NCBI GenBank assembly: GCA_965372715.1
Contig: CBDVDH010000041.1
Coordinates: forward strand, 1 to 35,297
Origin: an uncultured bacterium
GTDB taxonomy: Bacteria; B130-G9
DNA length: 35,297 bases
Direction: 5' to 3'
Shown here piece by piece: positions 18,311 to 25,904 of this stretch. The notes under the pieces are model-generated. The model was not told the origin of the DNA. It made no database searches and saw only the letters and a list, made by a program, of their open reading frames with translations. The stretch's first letter is position 1. Each line of letters begins with the position of its first letter. A program made the translations under genes and the position numbers.

Positions 18311-18733
18311 TCAGAACTGTTTTGTATAGCGCTCCAGGCCGTCTTTCGACTCCTCCTTAAGAATCCAGAAACTGCTCTTCGAGGAGTTGAAATCCCGATG
18401 CAGCACGTCGCGCTTAATCAGTCTCATTATAAGTCCGAAGGGTGTGAACACAAGATAAAACAGAATGCTCAAGAGCAGGCGGGAATTGAACCAGCCGACG
18501 GCCCGAGCGAAGACCATCCAGCATCTAAACGCTGGCCCCAGAGGCCTGGGCGACACAAGGGCAATGAGGAAAACAGCGGCCGCAATAGCGATAAGAATCA
18601 GGCCAATAGGTGTTCCTTCTGGGAACCCGCGCAGCAAATACCTGATCGCCGTAATCACCGTCGCGAGCACGAGCAAAGCGCCGGCAACGACCCTCAGCTG
18701 CTTGGTCTCGTCTCTTGATAGTTCTTTCTCCAT
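18311..18733 (-). CDS. SxtJ family membrane protein
   Basis: W....G..NSR.LL...FY...TP.G..MR...RD.L...SS.W motif; translationally coupled to the carbamoyltransferase. Confidence 0.88.
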   Translation of the reverse strand: MEKELSRDETKQLRVVAGALLVLATVITAIRYLLRGFPEGTPIGLILIAIAAAVFLIALVSPRPLGPAFRCWMVFARAVGWFNSRLLLSILFYLVFTPFGLIMRLIKRDVLHRDFNSSKSSFWILKEESKDGLERYTKQF

Positions 18734-20547
18734 CAGTCCGGAGGAAACTCCTTTTTCCAGTTGTCCGGCTCATCCCAGGCCGGCTGCTCGTTCTTGTCCA
18801 GAATAAATGAGCCGACCGCGAGAAAGTCCATTCTGGTGCGCATGAAGCACTTGTATGCGTCCTGAGGCGTGCAGACGATTGGTTCGCCTCGCACGTTGAA
18901 CGACGTGTTTATTATGACCGGGCAGCCAGTCAGCTTCTTGAATTCTGAAATGATTGCGTGATAGAGCGGGTTGTCTTTCTTGTCAACGGTCTGAACTCGG
19001 GCGGAATAATCGACGTGCGTAACGGCCGGGATGTCCGACCGCTTCAATCTGAGCTTGTCGAGGCCGAATAGGCCTTGCGCGTTCTCATGCTCAATGCGGC
19101 GCTCTTTCTTGACCGGGGCGACGAGCAGCATGTATGGGCTCTCCCGGTCTAACTCGAAGTAGTCCGAGACGTCCTCTCTAAGGACTGTTGGCGCGAACGG
19201 CCTGAACGACTCGCGGAACTTGATCTTCTTGTTCATGACGGTCTGCATCTCCTCGGACCTCGCGTCGCCGATTATGCTCCTTGCGCCGAGCGCCCTCGGC
19301 CCAAACTCCATCCTGCCCTGACACAAGCCGACGACCTTCTCGCTGGCTACGAGCTTGGCGATCGTCTCGGGGAGCTTGTCCGATGCAATCAGCGCGTATT
19401 TCGCGCCCTGCTCCTTCAGAAACGCCTCAATCTCGTGGGCTGAGAAGCCCGGGCCGAGCAGCGAGGCATTCTGAGTATCCGTAACGCCATCGGCGCTGCG
19501 CGGGTTGCCGAGATACTGATGCCATACGAATAGTGCAACCCCAAGCGCGCCTCCAGCATCGCCGGCTGCGGGCTGTATCCAGATGTTGTCAAATGGCCCC
19601 TCACGAAGGATAAGCCCATTGCCAACGCAGTTCAGTGCGACGCCACCGGCGAGGCAGAGATTCTTCATGCCAGTCTCTTTGTGGACGTGGTTCGCCATCT
19701 TAAGCATGACCTCTTCGGTGACCTCTTGCACAGACCTCGCAAGGTCCATGTCTCGCTGCCGAATCGGGGATTCTGGCTTTCTCGGCGGTCCGCCAAACGC
19801 CTTATGGAAGCGTTCATTGGTCATCGTGAGGCCCGCGCAGTAGTTGAAGTAGTCCATGTTCATCACGAATGAGCCGTCGTCCCGCACCCTGATAAGATGC
19901 TCGTGAATGAGGTCAACGTACTCGGGTTCGCCGTAGGGCGCGAGGCCCATGACCTTATACTCGCCGGAGTTGACCCTGAAGCCCGTGTAGTAGGTGAACG
20001 CGGAGTAGAGAAGACCCAACGAGTGCGGGAAGTGCAGCTCCGCCAGTATTCTGACCTGATTCGCGGTTCCCACGCCGTAGCTTGCCGTCGCCCACTCGCC
20101 AACGCCGTCCATCGTGATGACCGCCGCCTCGTCAAACGGTGACGGGAAAAACGCGCTGGCAGCGTGCGACTCGTGATGTTCCGTGAAAAGTAACTCCCCT
20201 TCGTAGCTGAGCTCCTTCCCTAAAACGTCGCGTATCCAGAGCTTCTTCGAGAGCCAGAGCGGCATCGCCTTGAGAAACGAGCGAAGGCCGAATGGGGCAT
20301 AGGCGAGGTATGTCTCCAGGATTCGCTCGAACTTAATGAACGGCTTGTCGTAAAACCCAACGTAGTTGAGGTCCTGGGCAGATATGCCCGCGTGCTCAAG
20401 ACAGTATTTCACCGCGTTCTTGGGGAAGTTAAAGTCGTGCTTCTTGCGCGTGAAGCGCTCCTCCTGCGCAGCCGCGGCTATCTCACCGTCAACCACCAGC
20501 GCCGCAGCGCTGTCGTGATAATACGCTGATATACCAAGTATCTTCAT
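18733..20547 (-). CDS. O-carbamoyltransferase (NodU/CmcH family)
   Basis: Motifs ILGISAYYHDSAA, EERFTRKKHD, HHESHAASAF, DGVGE, LAGGVALNC, EFGPRALGARS and NTSFN. An alternative GTG start lies at 20556. Confidence 0.96.
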   Translation of the reverse strand: MKILGISAYYHDSAAALVVDGEIAAAAQEERFTRKKHDFNFPKNAVKYCLEHAGISAQDLNYVGFYDKPFIKFERILETYLAYAPFGLRSFLKAMPLWLSKKLWIRDVLGKELSYEGELLFTEHHESHAASAFFPSPFDEAAVITMDGVGEWATASYGVGTANQVRILAELHFPHSLGLLYSAFTYYTGFRVNSGEYKVMGLAPYGEPEYVDLIHEHLIRVRDDGSFVMNMDYFNYCAGLTMTNERFHKAFGGPPRKPESPIRQRDMDLARSVQEVTEEVMLKMANHVHKETGMKNLCLAGGVALNCVGNGLILREGPFDNIWIQPAAGDAGGALGVALFVWHQYLGNPRSADGVTDTQNASLLGPGFSAHEIEAFLKEQGAKYALIASDKLPETIAKLVASEKVVGLCQGRMEFGPRALGARSIIGDARSEEMQTVMNKKIKFRESFRPFAPTVLREDVSDYFELDRESPYMLLVAPVKKERRIEHENAQGLFGLDKLRLKRSDIPAVTHVDYSARVQTVDKKDNPLYHAIISEFKKLTGCPVIINTSFNVRGEPIVCTPQDAYKCFMRTRMDFLAVGSFILDKNEQPAWDEPDNWKKEFPPD

Positions 20548-20562
20548 TGTGCTCACGGATTC

Positions 20563-20608
20563 ATTTCAGATTCATTGGAACGAGCTGGCCATAATAAGTA
20601 TTGTACAA
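20563..20608. repeat. 46-bp perfect direct repeat, copy 1
   Basis: atttcagattcattggaacgagctggccataataagtattgtacaa, identical at 21993-22038. Confidence 0.95.
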
Positions 20609-20713
20609 TCGGTCTCGCTCGATACAGCAACCTCCAAGGAGATCCACTCCAGCTTAACCACCGGTCTAGATTCTGGGGAGAACTATGGCGGAAATGATGT
20701 TTCCACAAGACGT

Positions 20714-21946
20714 TCATCGCTTGAGCTTGATTCCAGCATTTCGTATTCTTGCTAGCACTAGTTTCGCGATAGCTTCGTGCCCTGCTGCGTTAGGATGACC
20801 GTCCTGCGTAATTGGATACGGTTGATCACCTTCCTCAAGACACTGTCTTAAGGCGGGTAAGGCATCTACCCAGTTGATCGAACGCACGTCGAGAAACTCC
20901 TTTGTTGCTGCCCAGAAGGCCTCTTCGTTTTCGATCAATCTCTGATACTCGCTGGTCATTCGACTAGGGTCCCGGAGAACCAATTCCTTGAAAACCAATT
21001 CTTTGGTGGGGATTAATAGCAATATGAAGTCTATGTCTTTGCTTTGCGTTCTTTCCCTCAGTGCTTTTATTGCTTTGCGACAGATGTTCCGACCCTCTAG
21101 TATTCTTGGATCCGCGAGGTCCAAAGCGTAAAGGCGAAGAGTCGGCCTGAGAATCGTCCTAAACTGATCATCTTCGTAAACATAGTAATTCCTTTCCGCC
21201 GCGTATTGTTTTCGTGATTCCCATATCTTGTCGGCGCTCCCGATACTTCTTGTGACTGCACTGAATAGTCCATACAATCTCGAGTTTTTCGAGAACCATT
21301 TTCTTATGTTAGTTACATCTGACTTCGGGTAAAGCACCGGCCTCTCGACCTCATTCGTCAAGCGCTCAGGACCTTTGATGCCCTGGAGCTGACGCTGTAT
21401 AGCCTCGTCAACTGATTTTAGCCAAGTCAGCTGGTTCCTGTCGTAAACGTAGGAATATGAGTCGTGAAGGTCATTCCCAGCATAAAAAGCCTCGATCACA
21501 AGCTTGGGATGAAGGCGGATAGCTTCATCCAACAGAACAATGCTATGTGTGGGTCCGTAGCCTCCATACGCCATATTGTATACTGTGAAATCGGACAGTC
21601 TTGCTAACTGTTGGGGCCAGGCTGATTCTAGCGGAACTCCACTCCCGTATGTTTGGGAATCACCCAAAGCTACTATGTCAACTTGCTGGGGGACGAACAG
21701 GTTTCGGAACCCGTTGCTGTCGTGGTCGGGACGAGCTGGATTAGGTCTGCTTCCCAGCTCTACATCCTTTATGACAGGGTATGTGTCGTCTAGCGTGGGA
21801 ACATGAGGATCTTGGCTAAGCATAGAATTGGCTTTAGGCAAGATAAGACACGTGACCTGAAGAAGTGCCTCAGAGGCTAACGCTACGCCGAGTATCATTA
21901 ATGCAGTAAACAGTATGCGTTTCCGTTGCGACATCGCGTTTCGCAT
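20714..21946 (-). CDS. Membrane-anchored SGNH/GDSL hydrolase-like protein
   Basis: N-terminal TM helix; LGDSQTYG, N...GGYG, GND and DGHPN blocks; AAGGAG RBS before ATG 21946; visibly more AT-rich than its neighbours. Confidence 0.85.
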   Translation of the reverse strand: MRNAMSQRKRILFTALMILGVALASEALLQVTCLILPKANSMLSQDPHVPTLDDTYPVIKDVELGSRPNPARPDHDSNGFRNLFVPQQVDIVALGDSQTYGSGVPLESAWPQQLARLSDFTVYNMAYGGYGPTHSIVLLDEAIRLHPKLVIEAFYAGNDLHDSYSYVYDRNQLTWLKSVDEAIQRQLQGIKGPERLTNEVERPVLYPKSDVTNIRKWFSKNSRLYGLFSAVTRSIGSADKIWESRKQYAAERNYYVYEDDQFRTILRPTLRLYALDLADPRILEGRNICRKAIKALRERTQSKDIDFILLLIPTKELVFKELVLRDPSRMTSEYQRLIENEEAFWAATKEFLDVRSINWVDALPALRQCLEEGDQPYPITQDGHPNAAGHEAIAKLVLARIRNAGIKLKR

Positions 21947-21992
21947 CAGAACTCCTTTGCTATTCATCCAGATTCTGAGGAGAGCTGTATTG

Positions 21993-22038
21993 ATTTCAGA
22001 TTCATTGGAACGAGCTGGCCATAATAAGTATTGTACAA
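21993..22038. repeat. 46-bp perfect direct repeat, copy 2
   Basis: Identical to 20563-20608. Confidence 0.95.
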
Positions 22039-22132
22039 CGGCTATGCAATCGATAATCTGGCATGGGCTTCGTGTCTTGCGAGGCGCTATTGTGGGACAA
22101 GATCGCAAATGAAGAGTAAAGGAAGCAAAGAG

Positions 22133-22315
22133 ATGATGTGGCTCATTATCGCAATCGCTGTCTATCTGCTGCTTCAGATCGTCATTCTGCCATATTTCGG
22201 TGTAGAGACGTGACTTTCGGGAGTATGTGGTGTCGGGTCTCGACGCGAGCAGAATAGCAAGCAAGAAGCAGCGCCTCACAGCGACAGCGCGGCGCGAGCC
22301 GGGCGTAGGGAATAG
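22133..22315 (+). CDS. Candidate small membrane selenoprotein (in-frame UGA at 22211-22213)
   Basis: MMWLIIAIAVYLLLQIVILPYFGVET-U-LSGVCGVGSRREQNSKQEAAPHSDSAARAGRRE*. AAGGA lies upstream, and a SECIS-like hairpin follows the UGA. Confidence 0.65.
22230..22246 (+). promoter_or_regulatory. Putative bacterial SECIS element
   Basis: Hairpin GUGUCG-GGUCU-CGACGC; the loop starts 23 nt after the UGA. Confidence 0.6.
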
Positions 22316-22360
22316 TCCGCTGACCCAGATGCTGTCTGAGGGAGATGAGGTGGGGTCGGT

Positions 22361-23554
22361 GTGAAACGTCCTGTTTCGACGAAGCGCATTGCTGGAAACC
22401 TGTTTTTGGTTCTGGTTTCTTTATGCGTGGCGTTGTTTGGGGCGGAACTCCTGTTGCGTTATTTCGACCCGCGCGAGCGGCTTGAAGCGGGTAAGGTCTT
22501 CTATGAACACGATGACGTGCTTGGTTGGCACAAGATTCCCAATGAGGAAGGCGTTCTCGTCCAGCCAGAATACGCGGTCTTCAAGAAGATCAACGCAAAG
22601 GGCCTCCGAGGACCAGAATGGTCCTACAAGAAGCCGGCCCTCGGCCTTTCAAGGATTCTCTGTTTGGGGGATTCATATTGCGAGGGCTATGCGGTTGAGC
22701 ATCAAGACCTGTTCACTGAGAAGCTTCAGAAGCGGATGGACAGTTGGGATGGCGGCCGCTGGGAGGTCATAAACGCCGGCACCGGGGGATACAGCACCGA
22801 TCAGGAGCTACTCTTCTTTCGGACAGAGGGCTACAAGTATGAGCCCGACCTCGTGGTCCTATTCTTCTACTACAACGACGTGGTCGTCAACACTCAGGAC
22901 ACGTATTGGGACGCGCCAAAGCCGCTTTTCAGGCTCGAGGGGGACAGGCTGCGTTTGATGAACGTGCCAGTGCCAATGCCCAAGATACGCGAGAAGAGCG
23001 AAGAGCTATCGCTCGGGGAGTGGCTCGGCGCAAATTCTCGAACCTATTCCTTTTTCGCTGATGAGCTTGGAGAATTGTCCTGGAGGTGGCTGTTCGGTGC
23101 AAAGCCGCCTGTTATGCCGCCGTCCTATAAGGAGTTCATCGTCTTTCAGAGCTCGCCGTCTCTGGAGACGCAGCGTGCCTGGAAGCTAACCCTGGCGCTG
23201 CTTGGCCAGCTCAAACGAGAGGTCGATGCCATTGGCTCTAGGCTGGTGGTCTTTCACGTCCCCTTTAAGGCCACTGTTCATCTCGATGAGTTTGAGGCGC
23301 TCAGGCGGCGTTACAGGATTCCCGCGGAGCTGTGTGACGAGGACAGACCGCGCAAGGACCTAGCCGCTGTGTGCCGCCGTCTGTCGATACCGTTCATAGA
23401 CCCTCTGGACCGGTTCCGAGAGCGTGCAGAGGCTTTGAGAGCCCACGGCAAGCGGTTGTATTTCGTTCTCGATGACCACTGGACTGCCGAGGGCAACGAG
23501 TTGGTTGCGAGCATCCTTTATGATTATATTGTCACCAACTATTCGGAAGAGTAG
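22361..23554 (+). CDS. Membrane-anchored SGNH/GDSL hydrolase-like protein
   Basis: N-terminal TM helix; LGDSYCEG, NAGTGGYSTDQE, YND and DDHWT..GN. Confidence 0.88.
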   Translation: MKRPVSTKRIAGNLFLVLVSLCVALFGAELLLRYFDPRERLEAGKVFYEHDDVLGWHKIPNEEGVLVQPEYAVFKKINAKGLRGPEWSYKKPALGLSRILCLGDSYCEGYAVEHQDLFTEKLQKRMDSWDGGRWEVINAGTGGYSTDQELLFFRTEGYKYEPDLVVLFFYYNDVVVNTQDTYWDAPKPLFRLEGDRLRLMNVPVPMPKIREKSEELSLGEWLGANSRTYSFFADELGELSWRWLFGAKPPVMPPSYKEFIVFQSSPSLETQRAWKLTLALLGQLKREVDAIGSRLVVFHVPFKATVHLDEFEALRRRYRIPAELCDEDRPRKDLAAVCRRLSIPFIDPLDRFRERAEALRAHGKRLYFVLDDHWTAEGNELVASILYDYIVTNYSEE

Positions 23555-23620: not shown

Positions 23621-23920
23621 TCATTCGCCCTCGCAGGGCTTTCTGTCGCAAGGCTCCCTTCGTCCGCAGCATGGAGCTGACCTGTCGCACGCAGCGCGAT
23701 CTTTGCCACTATCGGGGCCCGTGGACCCAGAGGCATGGACGCGCTTGTAGTCCGTGGCGTAGAAGCCGTGCCCCTTGAAGATGATCCCCGCGCCGGCGCC
23801 TAAGACCCGACGTACCCTGCCGCCACATTTCGGACACTGCTGGACCGGTTCATCGCTCATGTCTTGCAGCATGTCGAAATGATAGCCGCACTGTTTGCAC
23901 TTATACTCATAGGTTGGCAT
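23621..23920 (-). CDS. FmdB family zinc-ribbon protein with a Cys-rich tail
   Basis: MPTYEYKC..C...CPKCGG...FKG.GFY.TDY, with tail CDRSAPCCGRREPCDRKPC. Confidence 0.9.
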   Translation of the reverse strand: MPTYEYKCKQCGYHFDMLQDMSDEPVQQCPKCGGRVRRVLGAGAGIIFKGHGFYATDYKRVHASGSTGPDSGKDRAACDRSAPCCGRREPCDRKPCEGE

Positions 23921-23971: not shown

Positions 23972-25150
23972 TCACTCGTTAAGCACTTGCTTTCGAGCAG
24001 CAGATTTTGCCTCATCATAAACCTCCTTCAAAGGCACGCTCTGGTCAACAGCAACTTCCCTACATGATTCGTATTCCGGCGCAATGTTCATGACCTCCTT
24101 CGAGGATCTGGCGATCTTTACACCTACTTGGCCGAATCTCGTATCGACGGAAATGCTTTCTCTAAGGAGCTTCTGCCTGCCTAAATGCGAGATTCGGACC
24201 CCAAGGGATGTTGTTTCTGAGAAGACCGTTGCCAAACACGCATTCTGATTCTCTTGCCTCGCTAAAACGCTGAGTAAGGTCCCTAATCTCCCTTTCTTCA
24301 TGACAATTGGCGTCATCCACACATCCAAAGCGCCGTGCCTCAGCAGGACCTCGCAGGCGCCGCTGAGTATCTCAGGGCTCATATCGTCGATGTTGGTCTC
24401 AATCAGAACGACCTGGTCGTGATCATATTCATCGGTTTCCGTCTCACCGATGAGGACTCTTAGCATGTTGGGTATTTCAAGGTCTCTGCTGCCGAGGCCG
24501 TAGCCAACGCTGTCGATTCTCATGGCGGGCATCGCGCCGAAACTGCTGCACAGGTTCTTCAGAAGGGCAGCGCCGGTGGGCGTCACGAGCTCGGCCTCGA
24601 TGCCGCGCGAGTAGATCGGCAGTCCTTTGAGGAGCTCGAGCGTCGCCGGCGCCGGCACCGGAATCTCGCCATGCTGGCACTTGACGAAGCCAGTTCCAAC
24701 GTGAATCCTCGAGCAACACACCCTCTCGATGCCGAGCTGCTCAAGCGCTGTCACGGAACCGATGATGTCAACTATTGAGTCAAGCCCTCCGACTTCGTGA
24801 AAATGAACCTCTTCGACGTCACTCTGGTGAATGCGCGCCTCGGCCATCGCGATGCACTCAAAGATGGTCCTGCTTTTCGTCTTGATGCCGTCACTTAGCG
24901 CGCTCTGGTCCACGATTTCGAGTATATGGCGCAAATGGTGATGTGCGTGCCCCTCATCAACTTCAACGTCGAACTTGACGCCGGATAGCGACCCTTTCAT
25001 CCCCCTTGTGGCCGTCAGCCGAAACCCAGAGACGTTGATCTTCTGGAGTTCCTGTTCGAGGCGCTCAAGGGCAAGGCCAGCGTCAAGCAGCGCCCCGATG
25101 ACCATGTCCCCGCTTGCGCCCGAGAAACAGTCGAAGTATGCGGTCTTCAC
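23972..25150 (-). CDS. larC: Nickel pincer cofactor biosynthesis protein LarC (Ni insertase)
   Basis: Motifs YFDCFSGASGDM, His patch HAHHH, VHFHEVG..DSIVD, PVPAPAT, TPTGAA, ETNIDD and PEYE; GTG start with GGAG RBS. Confidence 0.95.
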   Translation of the reverse strand: MKTAYFDCFSGASGDMVIGALLDAGLALERLEQELQKINVSGFRLTATRGMKGSLSGVKFDVEVDEGHAHHHLRHILEIVDQSALSDGIKTKSRTIFECIAMAEARIHQSDVEEVHFHEVGGLDSIVDIIGSVTALEQLGIERVCCSRIHVGTGFVKCQHGEIPVPAPATLELLKGLPIYSRGIEAELVTPTGAALLKNLCSSFGAMPAMRIDSVGYGLGSRDLEIPNMLRVLIGETETDEYDHDQVVLIETNIDDMSPEILSGACEVLLRHGALDVWMTPIVMKKGRLGTLLSVLARQENQNACLATVFSETTSLGVRISHLGRQKLLRESISVDTRFGQVGVKIARSSKEVMNIAPEYESCREVAVDQSVPLKEVYDEAKSAARKQVLNE

Positions 25151-25151
25151 G

Positions 25152-25904
25152 TTACTCTCCCATTCGGTTGATCGTGCTGGCCGTATAGCCCGCGCCAAAG
25201 CCATTGTCTATATTCACGACTGTGACGCCCGGCGAGCAAGAGTTCAACATGCCAAGCAGTGCAGCCACACCGCTGAAGCTCGCGCCATAGCCGACGCTGG
25301 TCGGGACCGCGATGACCGGCTTGTCAACTAGCCCGCCAACGATGCTGGCAAGGGCGCCCTCCATTCCCGCCACAACGACCAGCACGTTAGCCCCCAAGAG
25401 CCTGGCCCTGTTGTCCAGAAGTCTGTGAATACCCGCTACACCAACGTCAAAGAGCCGCTCCACCCGGTTGCCCATGATCTCGGCTGTTATGGCCGCCTCC
25501 TCTGCGATTGGCACATCGGATGTGCCGGCGCTCACCACCAGGATGACGTTGTCGTTGGCCGGAACGCGGTGTTGTCCAATAAGAGCTATGCGCGCTGTCT
25601 CGAAATAGACCGCGTCCTCTCTCTCGCTCTTGATGGCCTCAAACGCCGACCGGTCGGCCTTAGTGGCCATGACGGGGGACTGACTTGCCGCGAGTCTCGC
25701 CATGATCTTGGCTATCTGATCGTCCGTCTTGCCTGTGCAGAGCACGACCTCCGGGAAGCCCCGACGCACTTGTCTGTGAGTATCGATCTTGGCCCAGCCC
25801 AACTCGTCGTAAGGCAGAGACCGCAGGAGCTCGAACGCCTCCTCGGCCGTAACCTTATGCTCCGAAATATCTGATAGGAGCTTCCTAATTCCCTTTGCGT
25901 CCAA
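25152..25904 (-). CDS. larB: Nickel pincer cofactor biosynthesis protein LarB
   Basis: Motifs D..R..R.GFPEV, AGTSD, DVGVAG.HR, AGMEGAL, PTSVGYG and VVNIDNGFGA. Confidence 0.95.
   Translation of the reverse strand: MDAKGIRKLLSDISEHKVTAEEAFELLRSLPYDELGWAKIDTHRQVRRGFPEVVLCTGKTDDQIAKIMARLAASQSPVMATKADRSAFEAIKSEREDAVYFETARIALIGQHRVPANDNVILVVSAGTSDVPIAEEAAITAEIMGNRVERLFDVGVAGIHRLLDNRARLLGANVLVVVAGMEGALASIVGGLVDKPVIAVPTSVGYGASFSGVAALLGMLNSCSPGVTVVNIDNGFGAGYTASTINRMGE

Follow-up and report, generated by a model that had tools for sequence, protein, structure and literature searches.

A conserved in-frame UGA with a SECIS hairpin points to a family of small single-pass membrane selenoproteins in bacteria

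Recoding of UGA as selenocysteine (Sec) by SelB and a SECIS hairpin is an established bacterial mechanism. In eukaryotes, small single-pass membrane selenoproteins are represented by SELENOK and SELENOS, whose short N-terminus is luminal or lies outside and whose cytosolic tail is disordered; SELENOS is reportedly reduced by thioredoxin. The DUF2892/YgaP-like proteins form another small membrane module, made of two helices with a G-x-x-T-C motif beside the helix, and are found together with rhodanese. The gene described here shares with fdhF of Escherichia coli an in-frame UGA, a short hairpin within ~20 nt of it and a GGUC-type loop opening with G. This comparison had been drawn in the initial annotation of the locus and holds, the apex of the E. 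coli K-12 fdhF element being GCA-GGUC-UGC. The first loop G of fdhF lies at nt 22 counted from the U of UGA, that of our gene at nt 26 and those of most of its relatives at nt 23-27. Unlike formate dehydrogenase, to which it is unrelated, the encoded protein is only 60 residues long, with 26 residues before the Sec.

The window analysed is a stretch of 35,297 nt from an uncultured bacterium (assembly GCA_965372715.1, contig CBDVDH010000041.1). Re-reading the sequence reproduced all the earlier coordinates for the open reading frame, the UGA at 22211, the 33-codon extension and the hairpin. The small gene (22133-22315, + strand, 60 codons with the UGA in frame) starts with ATG at 22133, followed by a second ATG at 22136. 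It is preceded at 7 nt by a ribosome-binding site, AAGGAAG (22119-22125, + strand), which was read directly and is kept in three relatives from the same phylum. An alternative in-frame ATG at 22109 would lengthen the protein by 8 residues; no good ribosome-binding site was found 5' of it, and in relatives outside the phylum the start codon lies 2-5 residues ahead of the helix. The N-terminal 26 codons (22133-22210, + strand) encode a short N-terminus and one transmembrane helix (residues ~3-22), and in translation read M-M-W, a hydrophobic run and then the motif L-P-Y-F-G-V-E-T. The UGA (22211-22213, + strand), predicted to be read as Sec at residue 27, stands at a conserved TGA column where some relatives carry Cys. 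It is followed by 33 codons (22214-22312, + strand) for L-S-G-V-C-G-V-G and a hydrophilic, poorly conserved tail, up to the true stop TAG (22313-22315, + strand), as judged from sequence and translation. Cys32 is encoded by TGT at 22226-22228, five residues after the UGA. A search for sigma-70-like promoters and terminator-like sites in 21800-22500 detected neither, and an Rfam search of 21500-23000 returned nothing relevant.

The hairpin (22230-22246, + strand) consists of the arms GUGUCG (22230-22235) and CGACGC (22241-22246) around a GGUCU loop, giving 6 pairs including one G-U, or alternatively 7 pairs with a GUC loop. Its first base is the 17th past the UGA and its loop starts at nt 26, within the range of 16-37 nt given for the UGA-to-loop distance in bacterial SECIS elements in PMC13188914. 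Taken alone, the window hairpin is at chance level (z = -0.06 for the fold of 22205-22275, 200 shuffles), and the minimum-free-energy fold of the same region pairs differently and omits it. For 57 TGA forms taken from different genomes, we then looked 14-34 nt from the UGA for the best hairpin and scored it by its pairs, a G-U counting half. The score was at least 5 in 51 of the 57, compared with 19% of composition-matched shuffles, and at least 6 in 77%, compared with 6% of shuffles. The loop started 23-27 nt from the U of UGA in 49/57 and opened with G in 48/57; loops remain GGUC, GGA or GGC although the stems differ completely among lineages. Eighteen sequences sharing one register could be aligned without gaps, and 89.6% of their cells were paired (60% when shuffled), a percentage inflated by their having been picked by hairpin register. 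The compensatory changes are unaffected by this choice: both sides were altered in all 8 stem pairs, the covariation score was 0.83 compared with 0.24 for shuffled sequences, and 0 of 500 shuffles scored as high. Sliding the partner arm, as a control, left at most 47% paired. In some cases a synonymous change in the codon of the +5 Cys is accompanied by a matching change in the arm facing it. The hairpin was present in 72 of the 77 named TGA loci listed, and in only one of nine loci, all from Planctomycetota, that carry a Cys codon at the same position. On these comparative grounds the window hairpin, whose covariation the initial annotation had proposed as a check, is a SECIS element. The family divides into relatives with TGA plus hairpin and relatives with a Cys codon and mostly no hairpin, and this comparison indicates that UGA 22211 is a conserved coding position.

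When genomes translated in all six frames were searched with the read-through peptide, the gene turned up in a congener, in two further genera of the same family and in two genomes that are unrelated. All of these relatives have TGA at the identical column, and the similarity extends past it, as the initial annotation had suggested looking for. Our collection includes 7 genomes of the window's phylum, 4 of them with the gene, and 14 of a second small phylum, 12 of them with the gene and all 12 with TGA. A broader sample of 401 genomes, comprising relatives of the window's organism and others spread across the domain, was searched with a profile of 30 Cys forms (E<=1e-4). The family was matched in 49 genomes from 46 genera, with TGA at the Sec column in all 49 (48 loci read directly, the 49th, G160, only tabulated as containing TGA). 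A selA model matched 180 of the same 401 genomes. selA is present in all 49 family-positive genomes, and the family is missing from every one of the 221 selA-negative genomes, a complete split in a sample that includes related and thus non-independent genomes; by this comparison the family appears to occur only in genomes with Sec machinery, and about a quarter (49/180) of the selA-positive genomes sampled carry it.

Among named genomes, a search with one family member as query gave at least 80 loci; among those listed, 77 of 80 have TGA, 1 has CGA and 2 could not be resolved. These loci come from Akkermansiaceae and other Verrucomicrobiales, Melainabacteria/Obscuribacterales, Myxococcota, Pirellulaceae, Acidobacteriota and 'Deltaproteobacteria'; they overlap the 401-genome sample and are not independent of it, and two are identical to loci found earlier. 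The initial annotation had proposed that homologues ending with TAA or TAG at this column would speak against it, and neither codon was found there in any homologue examined, TGA standing in the 49 genomes and in 77 of the 80 named loci listed. Three environmental contigs covering the gene also retain the TGA. Their sole difference from the window over 22133-22246 is G>A at 22245, which turns the G-U pair of the hairpin into A-U, and 9 or more differences fall in the tail and spacer (22259-22343). A word-based search with the window's protein returned only two near-identical entries.

We also built a profile from the first 41-45 residues of 17 TGA forms, entering Sec as Cys, and ran it against 1.84 billion representative proteins. 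It gave 1155 matches at E<=1e-3, of which 31 reached E<=1e-10; almost all of the matches are 40-110 residues in length. The family motif, [IV]-L-P-x-[FL]-G-[IV]-x-T-X-[ML]-S-G-x-C with X at the Sec column, was present in 141 of the best 150 of the 1155. Position X among these 141 is Cys in 109, Trp in 25, Ser in 3, Gly in 3 and Arg in 1, and 139 carry the +5 Cys. Seven more of the best 150 end exactly at the Thr before the UGA. L19, P20, G23 and T26 are invariant in the 17 TGA forms and nearly so in the 141 database relatives. The expected homologues with Cys aligned to the UGA thus exist, as 109 of the 141 database relatives and, at the DNA level, as the nine Planctomycetota loci, in which the codon is TGC or TGT. 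The Trp forms are most simply explained as TGA translated under genetic code 4 by the source pipelines; for the one Trp form whose codon was checked via a genome relative, the nearest one (89% identical) has TGA at that position. The U-x4-C pair described initially proved common but not universal, since some TGA forms are without the +5 Cys.

A few sequences depart from this pattern. P0002, a metagenomic relative 88% identical to the window's protein, has Gly at the Sec column, and its frame differs upstream and in the tail. Locus L202 (~1585) has CGA (Arg) at the Sec column and an early stop. The Gly, CGA, Ser and Arg forms may represent decayed copies, calls made with a different genetic code or genuine replacements. 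Locus L053 (G070:C17) was matched weakly, as the second hit in its genome (E = 0.009); it reads S-T-C-L-R-N-V-C with Cys at the Sec column, shows no clear hydrophobic helix upstream and is possibly unrelated to the family. In the ESM Atlas, only a 'hypothetical protein' cluster was found, with Planctomycetota as its commonest taxon, and exact-sequence look-up of 10 relatives gave no informative names.

All four genes of the Sec machinery that the initial annotation had named for checking were found in the window's genome (112 contigs, 95.9% complete): selA (567 bits), selB (315 bits, above the cut-off), selC, i.e., tRNA-Sec (75.6 bits, the gathering score being 47), and selD (371 bits). The selD gene (G000:C97:383-1312) itself carries an in-frame TGA, and it is therefore of the Sec type of selenophosphate synthetase. 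From its gene content, the organism is predicted to be able to decode UGA as selenocysteine.

AlphaFold2, run on a 17-row alignment, predicts one helix at residues 3-22 and, with low confidence, no structure after residue 22. The N-terminal flank of the helix is short across the family (median 3 residues, with 0.7 Lys+Arg), and the 25 residues following the helix hold 3.1 Lys+Arg. By the positive-inside rule only, the Sec/Cys motif and the tail would face the cytoplasm, an orientation that fits the TrxA-type domain fused to some relatives. The protein would accordingly have a two-residue N-terminus outside, the motif LPxFG[IV]xT-Sec-LSGxC at the cytoplasmic face of the membrane and a disordered tail. 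We also weighed a lipoprotein signal but rejected it: many members have a residue other than Gly, Ala or Ser ahead of the +5 Cys, and position -3 is Ser.

Fused forms occur in the second phylum, where in 10 of the 12 carriers the frame continues via a linker of ~15-75 residues into a complete thioredoxin domain. The thioredoxin equivalog model TIGR01068 matches all 10, over the thioredoxin part only (residues 51-147). For a fused form, the AlphaFold2 model has a helix at residues 3-23, then a disordered segment and finally a thioredoxin fold predicted with confidence (mean pLDDT 81). In three of the 10 fused genes, no ATG, GTG or TTG occurs in frame after the UGA and ahead of the fold, and the domain of these three would therefore be made only via read-through of the UGA. 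The active site of the fused thioredoxin is an all-Cys C-x-P-C, mostly WCGPC, with the Sec ~45-105 residues upstream. Longer fused Cys forms were not found in a search with a single Cys member as query, which is a weak test.

Free-standing genes for thioredoxin and related proteins also occur beside the small gene. Among 34 non-fused TGA loci, thioredoxin genes adjoin 3, namely a Trx2-type gene directly downstream in one unrelated genome and genes within ~1.5 kb in two others, and an AhpC/TSA-family redoxin lies upstream in 1. Two of nine Cys-form loci also have thioredoxin neighbours, which flank the gene in L120 and lie upstream of it in L113. Genes for an ECF sigma factor and a zinc-finger (zf-HC2) anti-sigma factor lie just downstream in 3 of the 9 Cys loci (L113, L118 and L119, Planctomycetota). 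A link to sulfur transfer comes from 66 named loci, of which 15 have a rhodanese-domain gene next door (8 CoA-disulfide-reductase/rhodanese fusions, 3 metallo-beta-lactamase/rhodanese fusions and 4 rhodanese alone) and 3 have a TauE/SafE sulfite exporter. The 8 CoA-disulfide-reductase/rhodanese fusions end ~60 nt upstream on the same strand (L156, L161, L174, L175, L179, L181, L183 and L187). Nearly all of the rhodanese and TauE neighbours belong to Melainabacteria/Obscuribacterales. An alpha/beta hydrolase (Hydrolase_4) directly follows on the same strand in 6 of the 66 loci (L156, L174, L186, L187, L198 and L199), and in L186, L198 and L199 the upstream gene is other than a CoA-disulfide-reductase/rhodanese fusion. 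The remaining neighbours vary widely between lineages, and all these functional clues come from a minority of loci, many of them in related genomes.

In the window, the small gene lies in a divergent intergenic region flanked on the other side by a minus-strand SGNH-type hydrolase gene. Downstream of it, 45 nt away on the same strand, is a gene for a membrane-anchored SGNH/GDSL (AlgX-like) hydrolase (22361-23554, + strand; Pfam Lipase_GDSL_2 and ALGX). No terminator-like site was found between the two, and they are probably co-transcribed. The same order is seen in three relatives from the phylum and in one unrelated genome (G122). The hydrolases directly downstream in the family represent two unrelated folds, SGNH in the window's phylum and one other genome and alpha/beta in Melainabacteria. 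The region 18733-23554 encodes a NodU/CmcH-type carbamoyltransferase and two divergent membrane-anchored SGNH/AlgX-like hydrolases, and looks like a polysaccharide-modification cluster. It contains a 50-nt direct repeat, 98% identical between its copies (20559-20608 and 21989-22038), the 32-nt core of which occurs at these two sites only in the whole genome. The copies sit just upstream of the minus-strand starts of the carbamoyltransferase and SGNH-type hydrolase genes and may be a shared promoter or leader. On the minus strand beyond the cluster, a gene for an FmdB-type zinc-ribbon protein with a long C-terminal extension and Cys only (23621-23920) adjoins one for a LarC-like nickel-insertion protein (23972-25204). 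According to PMC13188914, FmdB-family proteins are selenoproteins in some organisms.

Taken together, the conserved TGA column, the Cys homologues, the covariation of the hairpin and the link to selA strongly support the initial view of the gene as coding for a membrane selenoprotein, and on this comparative evidence the UGA at 22211 almost certainly encodes selenocysteine. We estimate at roughly 0.85 the probability that 22133-22315 (+ strand) truly encodes a single-pass membrane selenoprotein of 60 residues. SelB with Sec-tRNA(Sec) would bind the hairpin at 22230-22246 while the ribosome holds the UGA in its A site, Sec would be inserted, and translation would continue for 33 codons to the UAG. 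Sec27 and Cys32 may then form a selenenylsulfide/selenol-thiol couple that thioredoxin re-reduces and that could act on oxidants or sulfane sulfur near the membrane. This functional part is proposed because of the thioredoxin fusion and the thioredoxin neighbours. Such a membrane-tethered, thioredoxin-recycled Sec27/Cys32 couple is, we infer, the most likely mechanism, at a little less than even odds. The pair had been described at the outset as serving redox chemistry or metal binding; the fused domains and the neighbouring genes lead to thioredoxin and, in one lineage, to sulfur-transfer enzymes, nothing specific to metals was seen, and the assignment stays inferential.

The same selenoprotein might instead be a carrier, in which Sec27, with or without Cys32, relays sulfane sulfur, selenium or a soft metal in partnership with rhodanese-type sulfurtransferases and is not a thioredoxin-recycled reductase. 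The rhodanese-domain neighbours in 15 of 66 named loci, together with TauE/SafE in 3, point in this direction, and TGA forms that lack the second Cys would suit a carrier better than a dithiol-type couple. However, nearly all such loci belong to the single lineage Melainabacteria/Obscuribacterales and represent few independent events, the window's phylum has no rhodanese or TauE neighbours, and the fusion to a classical thioredoxin points to reduction of a disulfide or selenenylsulfide. Because thioredoxin also reduces persulfides, the two readings overlap in part, and we consider the relay, the chief alternative to the thioredoxin-recycled couple, somewhat unlikely.

Two further explanations would deny the protein its central role. 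Were the UGA an ordinary stop, the product would be a 26-residue membrane peptide, and the hairpin and the open frame beyond it would be incidental or RNA-stabilising. It is hard to see, however, why the column would then hold neither TAA nor TAG in 49 genomes and hold TGA in 77 of 80 listed named loci, why the family would be confined to selA-positive genomes among the 401 sampled, why relatives would carry Cys there and keep the +5 Cys in frame, why the hairpin would accompany TGA and be missing with Cys codons (8 of 9), or how some genomes would reach their thioredoxin domain, for which read-through is the only route. The unremarkable single-sequence fold, the public gene calls that stop at the Thr preceding the UGA (7 of the 150 best matches) and the poorly conserved tail are in keeping with an ordinary stop, but we regard it as extremely unlikely. 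The gene could also act as a selenium-sensing leader, in which the efficiency of UGA decoding tunes the SGNH hydrolase 45 nt downstream and the peptide is secondary. The shared strand, the short gap free of a terminator-like site, the recurrence of a GDSL/SGNH hydrolase after the small gene in the phylum and one unrelated genome, and the alpha/beta hydrolase directly following in 6 of 66 named loci would all accommodate such a role. But downstream genes differ in most lineages, relatives with a Cys codon, which need no recoding, keep the peptide motif and thus indicate selection on the peptide, and in the thioredoxin fusions the peptide belongs to an enzyme. A leader function is thus very unlikely, and the selenoprotein reading remains the one that we favour.

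The initial annotation did not recognise the protein as a member of a named family, and no such family matched it. Searches of Pfam-A and NCBIfam (release 20.0) with the window's protein, 12 Cys forms, 20 Trp forms and 2 UGA-truncated forms gave only sub-threshold matches at chance level, with no model above threshold. None of the 119 prokaryotic selenoprotein families in Table 1 of a 2026 review (PMC13188914) resembles it. Nor was a description of the family found in the main texts of the literature searched, including PMC13188914, bioRxiv 10.1101/2022.07.06.499078 and PMC4807772; it is distinctly unlikely, but by no means negligible, that the family is already described somewhere, for instance in a supplement under a 'hypothetical protein' label. 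What is new, and apparently uncatalogued, is the family, its architecture and its prevalence, the recoding mechanism being the standard bacterial one. It had been anticipated that gene callers would truncate or miss the gene, and in practice it is either dropped or called as a fragment of 29-40 residues. Callers miss it, and catalogues may have done so, because fewer than 30 codons (about 26) precede the UGA, and genes of this kind form a blind spot of current methods. Selenoprotein catalogues steer genome annotation and estimates of microbial selenium use, and a family carried by about 1 in 4 of the Sec-using genomes sampled, absent from Pfam, NCBIfam and the 119-family list, would be a sizeable gap. 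The family may also offer an entry point to membrane-proximal redox or sulfur chemistry in little-studied phyla, namely Verrucomicrobiota, Melainabacteria, Planctomycetota, Myxococcota and candidate phyla.

Among described bacterial selenoproteins, those with a thioredoxin fold (UxxC or CxxU; Table 1 of PMC13188914) are akin to the present family in their likely thiol/selenol chemistry and, in one phylum, through the thioredoxin fusion. Unlike in those proteins, the Sec lies outside the fold and beside a membrane helix, and the window's protein has no thioredoxin domain of its own. TsoA (NF045695), known here from its row in the table of PMC13188914, has the similar motif U-L-A-x-C, compared with U-L-S-G-x-C in our family, but its spacing is U-x3-C and not U-x4-C and its model spans 144 positions; that model (cut-off 170 bits) gave no match at E<=10 to the window's protein or to the whole genome. 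In the DUF2892/YgaP-like module, the motif differs from ours in its Pro-Gly spacing and there are two helices instead of one, and neither the window's protein nor 12 Cys forms matched it in Pfam at E<=1. A single-pass membrane micro-selenoprotein is a type missing from the 2026 catalogue as given in Table 1 of PMC13188914, and the natural thioredoxin fusion suggests the reductant of its membrane-interface Sec.

In architecture the protein resembles the eukaryotic SELENOK and SELENOS, to which no sequence relation was found, no Pfam family scoring above threshold at E<=1. Unlike the window's protein, with its Sec at the membrane interface and its SECIS element in frame, these have their Sec near the C-terminus and a SECIS element in the 3'-UTR. 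We advance only tentatively, as more doubtful than probable, a wider view of this family, found in 49 of the 180 Sec-decoding genomes sampled and in at least five named phyla. It would be among the most widespread bacterial selenoprotein families, missed by the catalogues because of the short stretch before its UGA, and a bacterial parallel in design to SELENOK and SELENOS, with a membrane-tethered Sec/Cys site that thioredoxin services and that protects or maintains the inner face of the membrane by acting on lipid peroxides or persulfides.
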